A model generated the notes under the pieces. That model ran no database searches, was not told the DNA's origin, and was given only the letters and a program-made list of their open reading frames with translations. From Rickettsiales bacterium (GTDB lineage Bacteria; Pseudomonadota; Alphaproteobacteria; Rickettsiales; JABSSG01): a stretch of 64,000 nt of DNA. The position numbers were made by a program, and so were the translations under genes. The stretch is from positions 5,114 to 69,113 of the forward strand of contig JAVKEN010000005.1 in the NCBI GenBank assembly GCA_040221415.1, in the 5' to 3' direction. This document shows, piece after piece, positions 825 to 42,249 of this stretch. The first letter of the stretch is position 1. Every line of letters begins with the position of its first letter.

Positions 825-3567
<2,743 letters not shown>

Positions 3568-3651
3568 CATTATCGATTACTCATGTGTACAGCGTTAAGG
3601 CTGTATAAAAAGAAAATTATATACACAATAATACTTTAGGCCTGTTTAACT

Positions 3652-3768
3652 GGCCTGGTGGTTATAGCATTCGTGAAACACCTGATCCCATTCCGAACTC
3701 AGAAGTGAAACCGGATAGCGCTGATGGTACTACGTCTTAAGTCGTGGGAGAGTAAGTCGCCGCCAGGC
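3652..3768 (+). rRNA. rrf: 5S ribosomal RNA
   Basis: GGCCTGGTGG...CACCTGATCCCATTCCGAACTCAGAAGTGAAAC...GGGAGAGTAAGTCGCCGCCAGGC with terminal helix I. Ends approximate. Confidence 0.97.
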
Positions 3769-32276: not shown

Positions 32277-32987
32277 TTGTTCAATCACACGTTACTTTTA
32301 GATAGACGCAGGAGGTTAGGTAAGAGATTCCATAAAGCAAACTTCTTGCACAAGATTTCAAATGATGAGATTTGCTTTAGAGCTAGAGTAATTAGTGATA
32401 AATATGGAAAAGTTTTGGAGGTGGGCTGCAGAGGAGACTTTCTAGAAAAAGAAATTATAGAAAATATTAAATTTTCTAAATACAACAAAATTAGCGAGAT
32501 CGAGGTAGGTGATTTTGAGGAAAAAGATTACGATCTTATAATAAGCAGCTTATCATTCCATTATTTAAATGATTTTAGGGAGTTCATGCTAAAATTGCAT
32601 AAAATTCTTGCTCCTAAGGGTGTATTGATTTTTTCTATCTTCGGTAACGATACCTTGCTTGATTTCAAAAGAAAAATAGCTGAAATTGAGATGAAAAATA
32701 TTGGTGCTGCGTACCAGAGAATTATTCCTATGATCAGAGATCAAGACATTTCCCATACTTTAAATGCTTCTGGGTTTACAGAGGTAGTTGTTGATTCGAT
32801 GCGTCAAGGGGTTGTATATCAGGATCTAAGCTCTCTTGCGAGGGATGTGAGGTTGATGGCTGAGAATAATATTATGGATTCTGTGAAAAGCAAAATAAAT
32901 AAGAAGGTTTTCTTAGATTTGCAGAAAAATTATAATAATAAGGTTTTTGAGAATTTCGATATGATTTTTGCTACTGCCATAAAATAA
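32277..32987 (+). CDS. SAM-dependent methyltransferase (BioC-like / NDUFAF5-like)
   Basis: VLEVGCRG, DLIISSLSFHYLND, LAPKGVLIFSIFG, L.RDVR.M.E. TTG start. Confidence 0.75.
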   Translation: MFNHTLLLDRRRRLGKRFHKANFLHKISNDEICFRARVISDKYGKVLEVGCRGDFLEKEIIENIKFSKYNKISEIEVGDFEEKDYDLIISSLSFHYLNDFREFMLKLHKILAPKGVLIFSIFGNDTLLDFKRKIAEIEMKNIGAAYQRIIPMIRDQDISHTLNASGFTEVVVDSMRQGVVYQDLSSLARDVRLMAENNIMDSVKSKINKKVFLDLQKNYNNKVFENFDMIFATAIK

Positions 32988-33064
<77 letters not shown>

Positions 33065-33186
33065 TTAAGGGAGTTGTATTAATATCAATTAAACAATTTC
33101 GAGTAAATAATTTTTTGTACTTTTACTTTTATTGGTTGAAAAAAAGACAGTAAATCGTATAAAGTTACACAAACTACTTTGCTAAC

Positions 33187-34320
33187 ATGAAAATCGCAAT
33201 TTTACGAGAAAGACAAGTTTCAGAAAATAGGGTGGCAATAACTCCCGATTTAGTGAAATCGTACAAAGATATGGGCTTTGAGGTCTGTATAGAAGGTGGA
33301 GCTGGTACTGCAGCCAGCTACAGCGATGAGTGTTTTGAAAGTGCTGGGGCAAAAATATCCAAAGTACTTCTAGAAATTCTCGCTGATGCAGATATCTTGT
33401 TGAAGGTACAAAACTCACCGACTGATGAAAAAGTTGAACTTGAATATATGAAAGAGGGTTCAATTATTATTGGCATGATGTCGCCATTTGAAAATGCCAA
33501 ATATTTTGAGAATGCTAATGCTAAGAAAATTAATATTTTCTCGATGGAATTTGTGCCAAGAATTACAAGAGCGCAGAGCATGGATGTTCTGTCTTCTCAA
33601 AGCAATTTAGCTGGATATCGTGCTGTTATTGAAGCTTCGTACCATTACTCAAAACTGTTTCCAATGTTGATGACTGCTGCTGGGACTATATCTCCGGCTA
33701 AAGTATTAATTCTTGGAGCTGGGGTTGCCGGCTTGCAAGCAATTGCTACAGCTAAAAGATTAGGAGCTGTCGTAAATGTTTTTGATGTTAGGGCCGCAGC
33801 AAAAGAGCAAGTTGAAAGCTTGGGAGCTAAGTTTGTTGAAGTTGAATCAGATGAGGATATGGAAACTTCGGGAGGTTATGCAAAAGAGGCTTCGGAGGAA
33901 TATAAGAGAAAGCAGTCAAGGTTAATAGATGAATATGTTGTTAAGTCCGACATTGTTATAACGACAGCTTTGATACCTGGGAAAAAAGCTCCTACCCTTG
34001 TTACAAGACGGATGGTTGAGGATATGAAATCTGGTTCGGTTGTTATTGACCTAGCTGCAATTTCAGGTGGAAATTGTGAATTGACAGAGCTTGATAATAT
34101 TGTGGAGTTTGAAGGAAAAAAAATTGTAGGTCTTAGAAATATATTGTCTTCAGTAGCTACCGATGCAAGCAAGATGTATTCAAAAAATCTGTATAACTTT
34201 GTAAAGTTACTTTTTGATAGCGATGAGAAAAAAATTCAAATTAACCTGGACGATGAAATTATAAAGCACTCACTAATTACTAGTGAAGGAAAAGTGATTA
34301 ATGAAAGGTTGAAGACGTAG
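33187..34320 (+). CDS. pntAa: NAD(P) transhydrogenase subunit alpha part 1 (domain I)
   Basis: [56 protein letters not shown]. Confidence 0.96.
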
Positions 34321-34322
34321 GA

Positions 34323-34733
34323 ATGAAAAAATCTATTAGCAAAATTGAATCTCTCTCAGGTGAGATTGTTACAAAAGCAAAGCAGATTGTTGTTGAGGCT
34401 GGAAATGCTGGCTCCAGCACGACTGAGTGCTCTAATGTGGTTAGTGGAGTAGATCCTTTTGTGTTTGCAGTCACAGTGTTTATCCTGGCTTGTTTCATTG
34501 GGTACTATGTTGTTTGGAAGGTGACGCCTGCTCTTCATACCCCGTTAATGTCAGTCACAAATGCTATCTCTGGAATTATTATTGTGGGTGCAATGATTGC
34601 ACTTGGTCCTAAGGGAATGGGGGTTTCTCAGGTGGTTGGGTTCATTTCAGTTGTAATTGCCTCAATAAATATTTTTGGTGGATTTGTTGTCACTAACAGA
34701 ATGTTACAAATGTTTAAAAAGAAAAGTAAATGA
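34323..34733 (+). CDS. pntAb: NAD(P) transhydrogenase subunit alpha part 2 (membrane)
   Basis: [35 protein letters not shown]. Confidence 0.96.
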
Positions 34734-36127
34734 TACCTGCATATATCTCGTTCGCATATTTATTTTCAGGAGTGTGTTTTATTCTAGCTATCAAAGGCCT
34801 GGCATCTCCTAAGTCGGCGCGCCAAGGTAATATATATGGTATAATTGGTATGATAAGCGCTATTGCAGCCACTGCTTATTATCCAGGTGTCGAGAATAGA
34901 GAAATCATTCTTGGTGGTGTTGCGCTTGGTGGTGTGATTGGGGTAGTTATTGCTCTTAGAATTAAAATGACTGCAATGCCACAACTTGTTGCAGCGTTTC
35001 ATTCCCTTGTTGGTTTGGCAGCTGTATTAATTGCAGCAGGAGCATTAATTAGTCCAGCAAGCTATGGAATTGGCAAGTCGGGCGGTATTAGTTTAGCGAA
35101 CCTAATAGAAATGATTTTAGGAGCTATCATTGGCGCGATTACATTTACTGGCTCAGTAATTGCATTTATGAAATTACAAGGAATTATGAAAAGCAAGCCG
35201 ATAAGATTCAAGGGTCAGCATGTAGTTAACTCTTTAATTACTGTAACAATAATTATTTTATCAATAAAATTTTGTCAGACTGAATCACTCTGGTTGTTTA
35301 TTTTAATATCTTTAGTGTCAGCTGTTCTTGGGATTCTTTTAATTATTCCTATTGGTGGAGCAGACATGCCAGTAGTCGTGTCTATGCTCAATTCTTATTC
35401 TGGTTGGGCAGCAGCAGGAATTGGATTTACTTTAAACAATAGTCTTTTAATTATTACTGGAGCAATTGTTGGTTCTAGTGGTGCAATACTTAGCTACATA
35501 ATGTGTAAGGCAATGAATCGTTCGATATTTAATGTGATATTTGGAGGATTCAGTGATGCTCCAACATCATCTAATGATTCGGAAGACGATGACAGAACCA
35601 CACAAGCAAGTAACCCTGAAGATGCTGCGTTCATGATGAAGAATTCCTCGTCTGTTATTATAGTTCCAGGTTATGGAATGGCGGTTGCTCAGGCTCAGCA
35701 CGCTTTGAAAGAGATGGATGAAATTCTTGAGAAAAGTGGCATCAAGGTGCGTTATGCAATCCACCCAGTTGCAGGAAGAATGCCAGGACATATGAATGTA
35801 TTACTTGCGGAAGCTGGAATAAGTTACGATAAAGTGTTTGAATTAGAAGATATCAACAGAGAGTTTGGTTCAACAGATGTGGTATATGTTATTGGAGCTA
35901 ATGATGTAACAAATCCTTCTGCAAAAACAGACAAAGCAAGCCCAATATACGGGATGCCTATTCTTGATGTGGAAAATGCAAAAACAATTCTGTTTGTTAA
36001 AAGATCAATGTCACCTGGTTATGCCGGAGTTCAAAACGAATTATTTTTCCGTGATAACACATACATGTTGTTTGGTGATGCAAAAAAAATGACAGAAAAT
36101 ATCGTTAAGGAACTCGAAAATCAATGA
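34730..36127 (+). CDS. pntB: NAD(P) transhydrogenase subunit beta
   Basis: [61 protein letters not shown]. Confidence 0.97.
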
Positions 36128-37653
36128 GTGCAAAAATTTTAGATGTAATCCAAAATTTTTTGTGGCCAATTAAACGTCACGAGCTCAAAAAGTTCTTCCC
36201 AATGGCGTTCATGCTATTTTTTATTTTATTTAATTACTCAGTTTTAAGGGTTTTGAAGGACAGTTTAGTTATACCTGCTCTTGGAGCTGAGGCGGTCAGC
36301 TTTATCAAGTCGTATTTTGTTGTGCCTTGTGCTGTGGTATTCGCGCTATTATATGCAAAGATGACTAATTTAATGAATTTCAACAGAATATTTTTTTCAA
36401 TCAGCGCTTTCTACTTAGTATATTTTATATTTTTCGGTTTGGTTATATACCCCCATCAAGAGTTTTTTCATCCGTCTTCGTATTTAGTAAATAAACTCAT
36501 TCATGAAAAATATGATCTGTACTTTTTTAGTATTGATATGGATCATTTTAAGTGGTTTATAATTATATTTGGTAAATGGTCGTTTGTACTAAATTACATA
36601 CTTGCTGAATTATGGGGATCATCAATGATCTTCTTATTATTTTGGCAGTTTGCAAATCAAACAGTCAAAACAGAGGAGGCCAAAAGATTTTATCCAATGT
36701 TTGGTTTGATTGGTCATGCAGGTGCGCTTATATCTGGCTATTTGTTGAAATATTTTGCTCATAATAGCGTAACTAACTATTACTTTTTTGGTATGGTTTT
36801 TGATGATAGCTTTACGGCTTCAGTTTTAGTTAGTGCTTTTATTGCACTGCTTATGATTATCGCAATTTTCTACTATATTAATTATGTTGCTGAGAAGGAG
36901 ACTGTGTATATTACAAAGGCCAAACGACCGGAAATGCTTAAGTCTAAATTGTCTATTAGAGAAAGTATCAAAGTTATAATGTCCTCAAAATATTTAGGAT
37001 ACATAGTGGTCTTAATTTTTTCTTATGGCATTGCTATTAATTTAGTAGAAGGTGTTTGGAAGGATAGAGCAAGAGCTCTTTATTCCAATACTGTTGACTA
37101 TGCAGGATTCTCTAGTGATGTGATTGTATATACTGGATATAGTGCAATGTTTTTTATGCTTGCGGGAGCAAACATATTTAAATATTTTGGTTGGCTGACA
37201 GCAGCACTCATTACACCAATTACAATATTTATCACGGGGATTCTTTTTTTCTTACTAGTTGTTTTCTCGGATACTATGTATGCGAACGTAGCAGCTATGA
37301 CGATAGTTAACCCATTGTTTCTGACTGTTTTTATTGGAACGATACAGAATGTATTATCAAAAGGTACGAAATACGCTCTGTTTGATTCAACAAAAGAGAT
37401 GTCCTATATACCTTTAAATCAAGAGCTTAAAAGCAAAGGGAAGGCAGCTGTAGATGTGATAGGAGCGAGGTTTGCAAAGTCTGGTGGAGCGCATGTTCAG
37501 TCCTTGATATTTATGATATTTCCTTCTGCTACATATACCTCAATTGCTCCCTATTTAATGGTGGTCTTCTCAATTGTCATGATCATTTGGCTGTTAGATG
37601 TGAAGTTGCTTTATAAGGCCTATACTTTAAAGTTGTCTAAATCAAAGAGCTAA
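36124..37653 (+). CDS. tlc: Nucleotide translocase (Tlc/NTT, AAA family), copy 1
   Basis: [63 protein letters not shown]. Confidence 0.95.
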
Positions 37654-37725: not shown

Positions 37726-38262
37726 ATGATGTCTTTTATAAAGCACTCCAAATATTTTTTCTTTGTCAGGTTCCCTTTGATAATTTTAGTTCTTGTTCTT
37801 ACGTTTAAATATATTTTCCCACAGACTGAGTTTGTTGCAACAAATCTTATAGAGCATAAAATAGGCAGCGTAGGATCTAGCGATGACAATAAATTTTATA
37901 GTTCTGTTATGACCTTTATGGGTGCAATGGCTGCTATGCTGTACTTGTTATACATGATTCTTTATGATGAAATGAAACTTTGCAATAACCATTACAGTAT
38001 GTTGTCAATTAATAGGAGAAAAGTTGTAAGTTCATTTTTGATGATCTTATTCGGAATGTTTTGTTTCACTGTGGTCCATATAATGCCAACTGATCAAAGT
38101 ACATTCATTGAAACTTTGGCGTATACTGGTTTGCTCCTAATGATATTAGCTTTTTGGTACATTGTGATTGCTGCGCTTAATCTCGCATATATCAATTTAG
38201 ATGCCGCTAAAACTTTGAAAAAAGAAATGAAGAGCTCTATTAAGATTAAAGTTTCAAAATAG
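37726..38262 (+). CDS. Hypothetical integral membrane protein (about 4 TM)
   Basis: 178 aa ORF with four hydrophobic segments filling the gap between tlc copies 1 and 2. No family recognised. Confidence 0.65.
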   Translation: MMSFIKHSKYFFFVRFPLIILVLVLTFKYIFPQTEFVATNLIEHKIGSVGSSDDNKFYSSVMTFMGAMAAMLYLLYMILYDEMKLCNNHYSMLSINRRKVVSSFLMILFGMFCFTVVHIMPTDQSTFIETLAYTGLLLMILAFWYIVIAALNLAYINLDAAKTLKKEMKSSIKIKVSK

Positions 38263-38348: not shown

Positions 38349-39851
38349 ATGAATTCATTACTTCAGTTTCTATGGCCTATAGAAAAAAAGGAATTAAAAA
38401 AGTTCCTACCGATGGCCTTGATCTCATTTTTCACAATATTTAACTACAATGCTTTGCGTAGTGTGAAGGAAACTCTCGTAGTTCCATCTATGGGAGCTGA
38501 ATCAATTACTTTTATAAAGGTTTATTTAGTAACCCCTTCGGCTATATTACTATTTTTACTGTATGCCAAATTATCAAATCGCTTTTCTTTCAAAGCTATT
38601 TACTATCAAGTAGCATCTTTTTATGTAATGTTCTTTATTTTATTCGGATTTATATTACTGCCTAATGCATCTTATATTCATCCAAGCCAATTATCCATAT
38701 CTCAGATTTCTGACAAAGAGGTGGACTTAATGTTGTTCAGTATAAATCTTAGTCATTTTAAGTGGTTTTTTACTCTTTATCAAAATTGGATGTTTGGGGT
38801 GTTTTATGTTTTGGCGGAGTTCTGGAATTCAACCATGACTCTACTTTTATTTTATCAGCTGGCTAACAAAATAACGCTGACTGATGAAGCAAAAAGATTT
38901 TATCCAATGTTCGCATTAGTTGGTAGTTTAGGAAATTTTGTTGCTGGAACAAGCATTAAAGTATTGCATGGCGCATTCTCTGAGAATGGTTCTTTGTTGA
39001 TGATACAGTCAATCATAGTAATGGCCGTGATTGCCACATTTTCTATTATGTTTTTGTTCCGATACATAAACGCAAATGTATTAACCAATAAATCAATTCA
39101 TGTTCCGAGGCCAAAGAACACAATAACTTCTAAGAAGAAAATTCCATTGAAAGAAAGCTTTAAAATAATCTTTTCATCTAAATATCTTGGAATGGTTGTG
39201 GTCCTAGTTATTTCCTATGGAGTAGCAATTAATTTATTAGAAGGTCCTTGGAAAGCTGAAGTTCGGAAAGTTTATCCAGGTAAAAATGAATACTTGTATT
39301 TTATGGCTACTCTGAATCAAGCGAATGGTCTGATTTCAATGATTTTTATGTTAGTTGGCGCAACGATTCTTAAGAAGTATAGTTGGTTTACTGCTGCAAT
39401 TATAACTCCTTTAATTATTTTTGTAACAGGCATTGCTTTTTTCTCGTTTGTTGTTTTTGGAGAATATATCAGTATATTGTTAGGTGCTTTCTTTATGATT
39501 AACCCTGCTTTTATTGCTGTGATTTTAGGAATGTCCCAGAACGTGTTGAGTAAATCTACAAAATACGCCTTGTTTGACCCTACTAAAGAAATGACGTATA
39601 TCCCTATTGACGAAGAATTAAAAAGCAAAGGCAAAGCAGCAGTTGACGTTGTGGGAGCGCGTTTTGCGAAATCTTTTGGTGCATTTGTGCAATCAACGAT
39701 TTTTATTCTATTCCCCGCCGCAACATATTCGAGCATTTCATGGTTCTTAATGATAATTTTTGCTATTGTTGCAATTATATGGATTTTAGATGTAAAGATT
39801 CTGAATAAAGAATATCTTCAGTATCTAAATCAAAACAAAGAAAAAGTTTAA
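38349..39851 (+). CDS. tlc: Nucleotide translocase (Tlc/NTT), copy 2, most divergent
   Basis: [62 protein letters not shown]. Confidence 0.94.
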   Translation: MNSLLQFLWPIEKKELKKFLPMALISFFTIFNYNALRSVKETLVVPSMGAESITFIKVYLVTPSAILLFLLYAKLSNRFSFKAIYYQVASFYVMFFILFGFILLPNASYIHPSQLSISQISDKEVDLMLFSINLSHFKWFFTLYQNWMFGVFYVLAEFWNSTMTLLLFYQLANKITLTDEAKRFYPMFALVGSLGNFVAGTSIKVLHGAFSENGSLLMIQSIIVMAVIATFSIMFLFRYINANVLTNKSIHVPRPKNTITSKKKIPLKESFKIIFSSKYLGMVVVLVISYGVAINLLEGPWKAEVRKVYPGKNEYLYFMATLNQANGLISMIFMLVGATILKKYSWFTAAIITPLIIFVTGIAFFSFVVFGEYISILLGAFFMINPAFIAVILGMSQNVLSKSTKYALFDPTKEMTYIPIDEELKSKGKAAVDVVGARFAKSFGAFVQSTIFILFPAATYSSISWFLMIIFAIVAIIWILDVKILNKEYLQYLNQNKEKV

Positions 39852-39866
39852 TCTTCTATTTTAAAA

Positions 39867-41384
39867 ATGAGTTTTTTTAATAGTGCAAAGCAATTTTTAT
39901 GGCCTATAGAAAGGTGGGAATTGAAGAAATTCTTGCCAATGACCTTTATGATGTTTTGTATTTTATTTAACTATAATGCTCTGAGATCTATAAAAGATAG
40001 TTTGGTGGTGCCAAACATAGGAGCAGAAGCAATTAATTTCATAAAGTTTTATTGTGTTGTGCCGACTGCCATAATTTTTATGGTGGTTTACGCGAAGATG
40101 ACCAATGTGATGAGAGCACCAAAAATATTTTATATTTTATGTATGTTTTTTTTGGCCTTTTTTCTTCTTTTTGCATTTGTTTTTTATCCAAATCAAGAAT
40201 TCTTTCATCCTGATCAATCAAAAATTTCCTCTTTAGAGAACTCTAAAATAAATTTCATGCTATTTAGTATTGATGCAGCTCATTTTAAGTGGTTCTTAAG
40301 AATATATTCTAAATGGACGTATGCTTTGTTTTATATTATTGCTGAATTGTGGGGATCGGCGATGTTGATGCTTTCGTTCTGGCAGTTTGCAAATCACATT
40401 ACTAGCACTTCACAGGCAAAAAGATTTTACCCAATGTTTGGCTTCTTAGGTAATATAGCCCTTATCATTGCTGGTGGAGTCATAAAGTATCTAGCTGTTA
40501 TTCAGAAAAATATGTCTGGCATTAACGTGATTTCTGATTCTGGTATGATGATTAAAACCATGCTTACTTTTATGAGTTTGTCTATAATTGTTATTATGTG
40601 GCTGTACAATTACATGCAGGTTGAAGTTCTTACTGATTCAAAGTATTTCTCTAAACCTAGAAAGAAAACAAAGCCAAAACTATCAATTGTTGAGAGTTTC
40701 AAAGTTATTTTTTCATCTAAATATTTAGGATATATAGTTGTTCTTGTGTTTTGCTATGGCATGTCAATAAATCTTGTTGAGGGGCCGTGGAAAAGTAAGG
40801 TTAGAGAGCTTTATCCAAATACAAATGACTATGCTTATTTTATGGGAAGTCTAAATCAGTATACTGGTTTGGCTTCAATGATATTTATGATAATAGGAGC
40901 TAATTTCCTGAGAAGGTTTAGTTGGTCTAAGGGTGCAATAATAACTCCTTTAATTATCTTTTTTACTGGTTTAGGATTCTTCAGCTTTGTTGTGTTTGAT
41001 GAGTTGGTTTTTAGCTATGTGGCAATTTTCATGATGATAAATCCTGTTTTTATTGCGGTGTATATAGGCACTATACAGAATGTTCTTTCAAAAGGCATAA
41101 AATATGCATTCTTTGATCCAACAAAGGAGATGGCATATATTCCGATAGATGATGAGTTAAAGACTAAGGGTAAAGCAGCGGTTGATGTCGTAGGGGCCAG
41201 ATTAGCAAAATCTTTTGGGGCATTTATTCAAGCTTCAATATTTAGTGTATTTCCATCAGCAAACTACAATGAGATTACGCCATATTTAATGGTTGTTTTT
41301 GTAATTATTTGTTTTGTATGGTTGTTAGATGTAAATTTCTTAAACAGAGAATATAAAAAAAGTTTGAAGTTAGAGGGAAATTAG
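39867..41384 (+). CDS. tlc: Nucleotide translocase (Tlc/NTT), copy 3
   Basis: [62 protein letters not shown]. Confidence 0.95.
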   Translation: MSFFNSAKQFLWPIERWELKKFLPMTFMMFCILFNYNALRSIKDSLVVPNIGAEAINFIKFYCVVPTAIIFMVVYAKMTNVMRAPKIFYILCMFFLAFFLLFAFVFYPNQEFFHPDQSKISSLENSKINFMLFSIDAAHFKWFLRIYSKWTYALFYIIAELWGSAMLMLSFWQFANHITSTSQAKRFYPMFGFLGNIALIIAGGVIKYLAVIQKNMSGINVISDSGMMIKTMLTFMSLSIIVIMWLYNYMQVEVLTDSKYFSKPRKKTKPKLSIVESFKVIFSSKYLGYIVVLVFCYGMSINLVEGPWKSKVRELYPNTNDYAYFMGSLNQYTGLASMIFMIIGANFLRRFSWSKGAIITPLIIFFTGLGFFSFVVFDELVFSYVAIFMMINPVFIAVYIGTIQNVLSKGIKYAFFDPTKEMAYIPIDDELKTKGKAAVDVVGARLAKSFGAFIQASIFSVFPSANYNEITPYLMVVFVIICFVWLLDVNFLNREYKKSLKLEGN

Positions 41385-41385
41385 A

Positions 41386-42249
41386 ATGGAGTTATTAATT
41401 ACAAATTACAGTTTTATTTTAATTACATTCTCTGTCATTTTAAGGCTATTTAATAAATTCAAGAAGCTATCCATTATTTCATACGCTTGTGCCTTGGGTG
41501 TTGCTTTGGGGCAGAACTATATTGAACCCATTGGCTTTGCGTATATTCTGACTGCCGTTGCAGCAATCATTTTATTTTATAAAAAAAACAATCATCTATA
41601 CATTAAAGTTGCTGCATTTTTTTTCATAGCTATCTTTGGTTATAACCTTCTAGCACACCAGCTTCCAGGATTTAATAATATTCAGCTTTTGTATGAAAAA
41701 CTTTCTCCTGACTCAGAGTATTACAGTCTATGGCTAAATTATGACTCTACTTTTTTTGCTAGCTTTATTTTTATTAAGGCATACAAGCCGATAGGTTTAA
41801 AAAAGCATTTCAAAGTAATTTTTCAAGGAGTAGCTTATGGTGCAGTAATTTCGCTGATATTGAGTTTTATATGCTTACATTATGGCATCATAAGGCTTGA
41901 TACCACAGTCCCCGACATCATTTGGTTGTGGTTATGGATTGTATCTTTATATGCAATATTTTCCGAAAGTTTTTACAGGATGTTTTTTATTGATTTTATA
42001 AGAGAAATTTGTCCAGGATCATTATCCTGGCTATTTGTCACAATAATAACTTCCTCTTTCTTATTTGCATATAGTCACTCTTGGGCTGGATCGTTGTACG
42101 TCTATGCTTCCTTTTTAGCTGGTGTGGTGTATTGTGTTTCTTATATTAAATCTGGATATAGAGTGGAGTCTTCGTCAGTAACTCATATAATGGTAAATGT
42201 TTTACATTTTATATTTTTTACATACCCGTTTTATATTCAAACCAGTTAA
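41386..42249 (+). CDS. CPBP/Abi family intramembrane (CAAX-type) protease homolog
   Basis: Multi-TM protein with SESFYR (EExxxR-like), FAYSH and HIMVN motifs. Confidence 0.75.
   Translation: MELLITNYSFILITFSVILRLFNKFKKLSIISYACALGVALGQNYIEPIGFAYILTAVAAIILFYKKNNHLYIKVAAFFFIAIFGYNLLAHQLPGFNNIQLLYEKLSPDSEYYSLWLNYDSTFFASFIFIKAYKPIGLKKHFKVIFQGVAYGAVISLILSFICLHYGIIRLDTTVPDIIWLWLWIVSLYAIFSESFYRMFFIDFIREICPGSLSWLFVTIITSSFLFAYSHSWAGSLYVYASFLAGVVYCVSYIKSGYRVESSSVTHIMVNVLHFIFFTYPFYIQTS

Follow-up and report, generated by a model that had tools for sequence, protein, structure and literature searches.

Why should a transhydrogenase operon continue, without a gap, into the gene of a nucleotide transporter? 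The question is raised by a 64,000-nucleotide stretch from a Rickettsiales bacterium (GenBank assembly GCA_040221415.1, contig JAVKEN010000005.1, positions 5,114 to 69,113; hereafter the window), in which the genes of a proton-translocating transhydrogenase, pntAa, pntAb and pntB, run directly into tlcA, a gene of the TLC/NTT family of nucleotide transporters. The original prediction was that this first tlc copy may import host nicotinamide adenine dinucleotide (NAD), or NADH, for use by the transhydrogenase. We lean, with little more than even confidence, towards a plainer reading: TlcA would be a canonical-clade ribonucleotide importer or exchanger, one of three tandem paralogues that arose beside pntB, and it would be transcribed with pntAB for the sake of compactness and not of a pathway.

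The four genes are intact, co-directional open reading frames on the forward strand. Reading the letters directly, we found that pntAb and pntB overlap by the 4 nucleotides ATGA at 34730-34733 (AAATGATA), and that pntB and tlcA overlap in the same way at 36124-36127 (AATCAATGAGT), where the TGA stop of pntB shares letters with the ATG start of tlcA. Both overlaps were part of the original prediction, and the open reading frames, the letters and the family matches bear them out. The start of tlcA is backed by homology, since the alignment to the solved carrier 9j3n opens at residue 8, and in relatives, including those with a spacing of +1 nucleotide, a later start is ruled out by a conserved N-terminal WPI..EL block. 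An overlap or a gap of at most 5 nucleotides, kept in relatives and leaving no room for a promoter, is what we looked for in a coupled operon, and it is found at pntB-tlcA. Thus pntAa, pntAb, pntB and tlcA are probably co-transcribed and translationally coupled; such coupling sets no fixed expression ratio. A scan of the region for promoters and terminators gave as many matches as expected from shuffled sequence, and so speaks neither for nor against an internal promoter. The ATGA overlap is not remarkable in itself: when genes were crudely called across the whole genome, an overlap of exactly 4 nucleotides was seen in 82 of the 865 pairs of same-strand neighbours (9.5%), and about 30% of these pairs were spaced by -4, -1 or 0-5 nucleotides.

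The identities of the four genes are clear from the Pfam and NCBIfam matches. PntAB is here the three-subunit proton-translocating form, with dI, the alpha-2 subunit of four transmembrane (TM) segments and the full dII and dIII all intact. PntAa matches NF006942 with 425.5 bits (cut-off 383) over profile positions 1-366 of 510, and PntAb matches positions 421-509 of the same profile. PntB covers positions 2-455 of the 456 of PF02233, and its NF006974 score of 541.6 bits lies below the equivalog cut-off of 689. TlcA belongs to the TLC/NTT family (TC 2.A.12), matching PF03219 over positions 10-491 of 491 (cut-off 21) and scoring above the TIGR00769 cut-off of 387.2. Three-gene proton-translocating transhydrogenases (pntAA-pntAB-pntB) of the Rhodospirillum rubrum type are found in Alphaproteobacteria, also in Rickettsia. 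As in this type, alpha is divided in the window between a dI gene and a 4-TM gene, beta comes next, and the domain matches are full-length; in contrast, the gapless continuation into a nucleotide transporter gene is found only in the family of the source genome, referred to here as f1.

We determined the exact junction positions from whole-genome searches of f1 and of the order. A scan of species representatives found the block yaaA-methyltransferase-pntAa-pntAb-pntB-tlc-tlc in five related metagenome-assembled genomes, with TlcA 53-70% identical to that of the window. A TLC gene directly follows pntB in the source genome (G000) and in G002, G003, G006, G007, G009 and G010, which together represent four genera. 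The junction is -4 nucleotides in G000 (ATGA), in G006 (GTGA) and in three more metagenome contigs (L074, L075 and L076; TlcA 72-87% identical), +1 nucleotide (TAA-A-GTG or TAG-C-GTG) in the genus g4 genomes G003, G007, G009 and G010, and +5 nucleotides in G002. The adjacency is therefore not limited to the source genome. In L075 the genes upstream of pntAa differ, yet pnt-tlc-tlc-tlc-Rce1 stays intact. In genus g6 (G005 and G008) pntB and tlc are apart, and in G005 a 5.7-kb insertion of five genes lies exactly at the junction (L031, G005:C2 5717-11415). Judged by their sequence, the inserted genes appear to be lysA, lysC (aspartokinase), dapB, dapF and an aminotransferase, a lysine/diaminopimelate set. 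No copy of pntB was found in the two f1 genera represented by G001 and G004.

Outside f1 the arrangement was not seen. An even sample of the order comprised 151 genomes, 22 of which hold both pntB and a TLC gene, and adjacency among these 22 is restricted to f1. It occurs in none of the 16 such genomes from other families; eight of these are Rickettsia-like, each with five TLC genes, and none of those genes adjoins pntB, unlike in f1. Likewise, pntB lies in the flanks of none of the five tlc loci of a named Rickettsia genome. The pntB-tlcA arrangement is thus a trait of one uncultured Rickettsiales family, and our literature search found no paper describing it. Three metagenome-assembled genomes labelled 'Rickettsia typhi' or 'uncultured Rickettsia sp.' in public records (CAMDPW010000022.1, CAMCSP010000016.1 and CAZEVK010000003.1; L007, L008 and L012) carry the pnt-tlc junction, 3-4 TLC genes of the orthogroups A, B and C described below, and a TlcA 53-54% identical to that of the window. 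These genomes belong to f1, and their Rickettsia labels look wrong.

Conserved adjacency could be taken as a sign of a functional tie, and we therefore compared it with the synteny around it. Contigs of genera g4 and g6 keep genes 25-41 of the window (20.6-41.4 kb), a block of 17 genes, in collinear order, and G006 is collinear with almost the whole window. All adjacencies within the 17-gene block are as conserved as pntB/tlcA, and the sole break is at pntB/tlcA itself, in g6. Because the whole block is equally conserved, the conserved adjacency is no evidence of a functional tie, and we rejected it as a remarkable feature. Shared transcription is argued for only by the very tight spacing of pntB and tlcA.

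TlcA among the TLC/NTT carriers

Residues 8-501 of TlcA can be aligned both with the bacterial 'ADP,ATP carrier protein 1', whose structure is solved (9j3n; 362 bits, ~40% identity), and with the plastid carrier AtNTT1 (9j3j; 311 bits). We placed it in a maximum-likelihood tree of 55 sequences that included the five TLC paralogues of one Rickettsia genome; Tlc1, Tlc2 and Tlc5 were told apart by cluster names, and the remaining two are Tlc3 and Tlc4, not distinguished from each other. The TLC proteins of f1 form the orthogroups A (82/99), B (100/100) and C (98/90), and orthogroup A includes every copy that directly follows pntB. Together A, B and C are one family-specific expansion (94/100), sister to Rickettsia Tlc2-5 (99/94), with Tlc1 branching next. 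9j3n and AtNTT1 fall outside this grouping, which puts TlcA inside the canonical NTT clade, and a fourth copy, D, is more basal than A, B and C. The gene order is A-B-C in G000, G006, G005, L075 and L076, which, taken with the tree, suggests that the copies arose by tandem duplication on the downstream side of pntB. No f1 copy is a one-to-one orthologue of any characterised carrier.

The closest parallel is found in Rickettsia prowazekii, where, according to the account given in PMC5615194, Tlc1 exchanges ATP and ADP and Tlc4 and Tlc5 import other ribonucleotides. Like the f1 genomes, this obligate symbiont without nucleotide or NAD synthesis has several canonical-NTT paralogues; the A/B/C expansion, in contrast, is independent and family-specific, with no one-to-one orthology to Tlc1-Tlc5. 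TlcA also shares its canonical NTT fold and clade with Chlamydia trachomatis Npt1 and with 9j3n/9j3o, although it is only ~40% identical to 9j3n. We found no literature placing the gene of the chlamydial carrier beside a transhydrogenase, unlike tlcA.

We next considered the residues on which transport is likely to depend. Mutagenesis of AtNTT1 (Trentmann et al. 2000) reportedly showed that charged residues are needed for transport; we take these to be K155, E245, E385 and K527, mapped through 9j3j with a consistent offset of 84. With this numbering, they align with K62, E162, E309 and K452 of TlcA, and all four charges are kept in all four orthogroups, with one K/R variant in clade A. At 124 columns that are invariant in four ATP/ADP-type references, TlcC keeps 88% of the residues, TlcA 78%, copy D 77% and TlcB 75%. 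TlcC also shows 47-49% identity to Rickettsiaceae Tlc1, scores highest against the TLC model, has the shortest branches and is the slowest evolving copy, which makes it the best candidate for an ATP/ADP exchanger among the copies. TlcA appears as a moderately diverged paralogue whose retention of invariant columns is similar to that of Rickettsia Tlc3/4. Clade-A-specific changes at columns conserved in both the ATP/ADP references and clade C number two (I/V for L at 169 and H/Q for N at 198), too few to suggest a new specificity. Judged by its residues, TlcA is a canonical NTT without diagnostic departure from ATP/ADP-type carriers. G005 holds an extra, extremely divergent TLC (L032, G005:C2:294000-296600), with an end branch of 3.57 changes per column and only 48% of the reference-invariant columns kept; this copy could be in decay or could have taken on a new function.

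NAD auxotrophy and the substrate of TlcA

To ask whether NAD has to be imported, we searched the source genome (1.39 Mb, 26 contigs, 99.6% complete) and 20 relatives for NAD genes with hidden Markov models. In G000 these searches found no NadD, no NAPRTase/NadV family member (pncB/nadV) and no NadE, for which the sole weak match was MnmA, and QRPTase (nadC) was found nowhere in f1. The only CTP_transf_like (PF01467) proteins of G000 are CoaD and RibF, indicating that it has no nicotinamide mononucleotide (NMN) or nicotinate mononucleotide (NaMN) adenylyltransferase of any type. NAD kinase is present (NF003406, 308.8 bits against a cut-off of 211), as it is in nearly all relatives. With no recognisable de novo or salvage route and NAD kinase retained, G000 is an NAD auxotroph of the Rickettsia type, and NAD must be imported. 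The loss of NAD synthesis with retention of NAD kinase, which had been raised as a check on the original prediction, is therefore borne out. In Rickettsia itself, uptake of intact NAD has been known since 1989 and the carrier is still unidentified (Driscoll 2017, PMC5615194).

The distribution of NAD genes allowed us to order this loss relative to the junction. NAD-less genomes are G000, G006, G005 and G008, plus G013 in another family. nadD and nadE are kept in G003, G007, G010, G002, G004 and G009, with a NAPRTase-family match that is strong in G003, G007 and G010, weak in G002 and G004 and missing in G009. The junction occurs in both states, in NAD-less G000 and G006 and in nadD/nadE-positive G002, G003, G007, G009 and G010, and so arose before NAD salvage was lost. 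Furthermore, clade-A tlc persists in pnt-less G001 and G004 and the junction is broken in NAD-less g6, indicating that neither partner depends on the other. Sites with substitutions common to the four NAD-less f1 lineages number 4 in orthogroup A, 5 in orthogroup B and 2 in orthogroup C, and single out no paralogue. We also considered copy D as a tracker of NAD loss and rejected it, as its presence does not follow that loss; no NAD-related genes were found adjoining copy D or nadK. One genome, G001 (family f1, genus g2), keeps pncB and nadD with no full-length NadE match and has lost pntAB altogether; the genome is 95% complete, and this pattern may reflect either an NAD pathway partway through its decay or a gap in the assembly.

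Nucleotides are also in demand. With Escherichia coli proteins as tblastn queries, purD, purH, guaB and pyrB were not found in G000 and guaA gave only weak partial matches (22-25% identity); pyrG, eno, xseA and hupA were found. Since these markers of de novo purine, GMP and pyrimidine synthesis were not found, adenine and guanine nucleotides and UTP are needed from the host. In Rickettsiales it is usually such a need that accounts for the possession of several tlc paralogues, and across the order the presence of tlc mirrors the loss of nucleotide synthesis (Castelli et al. 2024, PMC10847448).

On this basis the substrates of TlcA are most probably ribonucleotides. In the reading that we favour, an ancestral tlc would have been the next gene downstream of pntB, whether from the outset or by later arrival, and would then have duplicated in tandem into A, B and C. 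The four TLC carriers would jointly supply host nucleotides, as in Rickettsia, and the link between TlcA and PntAB would be one of shared transcription in a compact, highly syntenic genome, with no dedicated NAD-to-NADPH module. Several points weigh against it. Very tight spacing at the junction is common to ten genomes or contigs whose TlcA identity ranges over ~50-87%, which would fit selection for co-expression, as would its survival of the rearrangement upstream of pntAa in L075. The substrate class of an NTT is not readable from its sequence, and a canonical sequence is compatible with NAD transport; indeed, C. trachomatis Npt1, a canonical NTT, carries NAD (Fisher 2013, as cited in PMC5381601). 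Finally, the need for NAD import is real, and no other candidate carrier was identified, though no profile search aimed at further NAD carriers, such as proteins of the mitochondrial carrier family, was made.

These points bear on the original prediction, in which TlcA would be an NAD+(H)/ADP-type carrier translated with PntAB, and imported host NAD would be fed to NAD kinase and the transhydrogenase to give NADPH. Part of it holds: the coupling is real and family-wide, and an NAD auxotroph that lacks nadC, pncB/nadV, nadD and nadE retains intact NAD kinase and PntAB, so that NAD must enter. Bacterial NAD carriers are, besides, known from the NTT family alone (PamNTT4 and CtNpt1; PMC5381601), the rickettsial NAD importer is still to be identified (PMC5615194), and the junction, found throughout f1 and in 0 of 16 genomes of the other families sampled, outlived an upstream rearrangement. 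The part that is not supported is the import of NAD(H) by this copy on behalf of PntAB. The junction predates the loss of salvage, being present in pncB/nadD/nadE-positive genera, and it is conserved no better than the 17-gene block; orthologues of TlcA are kept in two genera without pntAB, and the junction is broken in NAD-less g6; and the substitutions shared by NAD-less lineages carry no clade-A signal.

The phylogenetic position of TlcA does not help this model either. The carrier PamNTT4 of Protochlamydia amoebophila is reportedly an NAD+/ADP antiporter (Haferkamp et al. 2004) and is, to our knowledge, the only dedicated bacterial NAD importer. Given external NAD+, it has reportedly rescued an E. 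coli strain auxotrophic for NAD. It belongs to the same Pfam superfamily (TLC) as TlcA. However, TlcA nests among AtNTT1, 9j3n and Rickettsia Tlc1-5, whereas PamNTT4, a class III NTT, does not belong to the clade in which the plastid, chlamydial and rickettsial carriers fall (Major et al. 2017, PMC5381601), a separation that we take from that work together with our own tree, which holds no PamNTT4 sequence. The sole canonical NTT known for NAD, Npt1, is an ATP/ADP exchanger, and here it is TlcC that is most ATP/ADP-like; NAD carriage is a feature of Npt1, and TlcA is known here from its sequence. No evidence favours TlcA over TlcB, TlcC or TlcD, and what the comparison of genomes shows is at best neutral towards the model. 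We therefore regard import of NAD by TlcA for PntAB as unlikely.

About as unlikely is a version in which TlcA, as a canonical-clade NAD(H) importer, would have pre-adapted f1 to lose pncB-nadD-nadE at least once, and would be the first identified representative of rickettsial-type NAD uptake. The least probable reading that we considered makes TlcA an ATP/ADP exchanger, and its co-expression with PntAB a link between energy parasitism and redox supply: with F1Fo running in reverse, the ATP taken up would maintain the proton-motive force, which in turn would power the production of NADPH by PntAB. In its favour, TlcA shares 40% identity with the ADP,ATP carrier 9j3n, residues equivalent to K155, E245, E385 and K527 are kept, and PntAB does consume proton-motive force, as established biochemically. 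Against it, TlcC is the better candidate on invariant columns (88% against 78%), TLC score and branch length, only one of the five Rickettsia paralogues exchanges ATP and ADP (Audia and Winkler 2006, as cited in PMC5615194), two genera lost pntAB and kept TlcA, and the energetic link is pure conjecture.

The surrounding locus

The genes on either side of the operon are listed with it in Table 1. yaaA is the first gene of the conserved upstream block and is syntenic in G003, G005, G006, G007, G009 and G010. The methyltransferase that follows it, also syntenic in relatives, scores 70 bits against TIGR02072, under the cut-off. Between tlcA and tlcB lies orf178, for which Pfam and NCBIfam searches gave no family. 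The closest relative, L074, has an open reading frame with 67% identity to it at this position; G006, L075 and L076 lack it. orf178 appears to be a small membrane protein, specific to the genus, that was inserted in the tlc array. The Rce1-like gene starts 1 nucleotide past tlcC, a position kept in G006, L075 and L076. The fourth TLC gene, copy D, is on a separate contig (C13) of the source genome. Near the start of the window, Rfam matches mark a 23S and 5S rRNA pair (825-3768), and a 16S gene was not found within the window; in Rickettsiales the 16S gene is usually unlinked.

Table 1 Features of the pnt-tlc locus, with positions in the window.
Feature	Position	Strand	Length	Basis or remark
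yaaA, peroxide stress protein YaaA	31508..32269	+		PF03883 2.2e-83; NF002542 314 bits
SAM-dependent methyltransferase, weakly BioC-like	32277..32987	+		Methyltransf_23/11/12 matches
tRNA gene, between methyltransferase and pntAa	32991..33064	-		Rfam RF00005, 73 bits
Candidate sigma-70-like promoter, TTGAAA-18-TAAAGT	33136..33165	+		consensus match, 22 nt upstream of pntAa start
pntAa, transhydrogenase alpha-1 (dI, NAD(H)-binding domain)	33187..34320	+	377 aa	PF05222 + PF01262 (AlaDh_PNT_N+C)
pntAb, transhydrogenase alpha-2 (4-TM membrane part)	34323..34733	+	136 aa	PF12769 (PNTB_4TM) 6.8e-38
pntB, transhydrogenase beta (membrane dII + NADP(H)-binding dIII)	34730..36127	+	465 aa	PF02233 (PNTB) 652 bits
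tlcA, TLC/NTT nucleotide transporter, orthogroup A	36124..37653	+	509 aa	PF03219 534.9 bits; TIGR00769 449.1 bits
orf178, small hydrophobic orphan protein	37726..38262	+	178 aa	between tlcA and tlcB
tlcB, TLC/NTT paralogue, orthogroup B	38349..39851	+		PF03219 521 bits
tlcC, TLC/NTT paralogue, orthogroup C	39867..41384	+		PF03219 587 bits
Rce1-like (CAAX protease family) membrane protein	41386..42249	+		PF02517 5e-08

Significance of the arrangement

The source genome is a clean NAD auxotroph with just four NTT carriers, one of which is tied to the transhydrogenase operon family-wide, and from this follows a list of four candidate genes for its NAD carrier. If TlcA did prove to be that carrier, an NAD(H) importer and the enzyme that makes NADPH from NADH and NADP+ would share a transcript, a long-standing gap in the understanding of symbiont metabolism would be filled, and work on axenic culture media would benefit. 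If TlcA is not an NAD carrier, the arrangement would be a family-specific gene-order marker of compact genomes, without special functional meaning.

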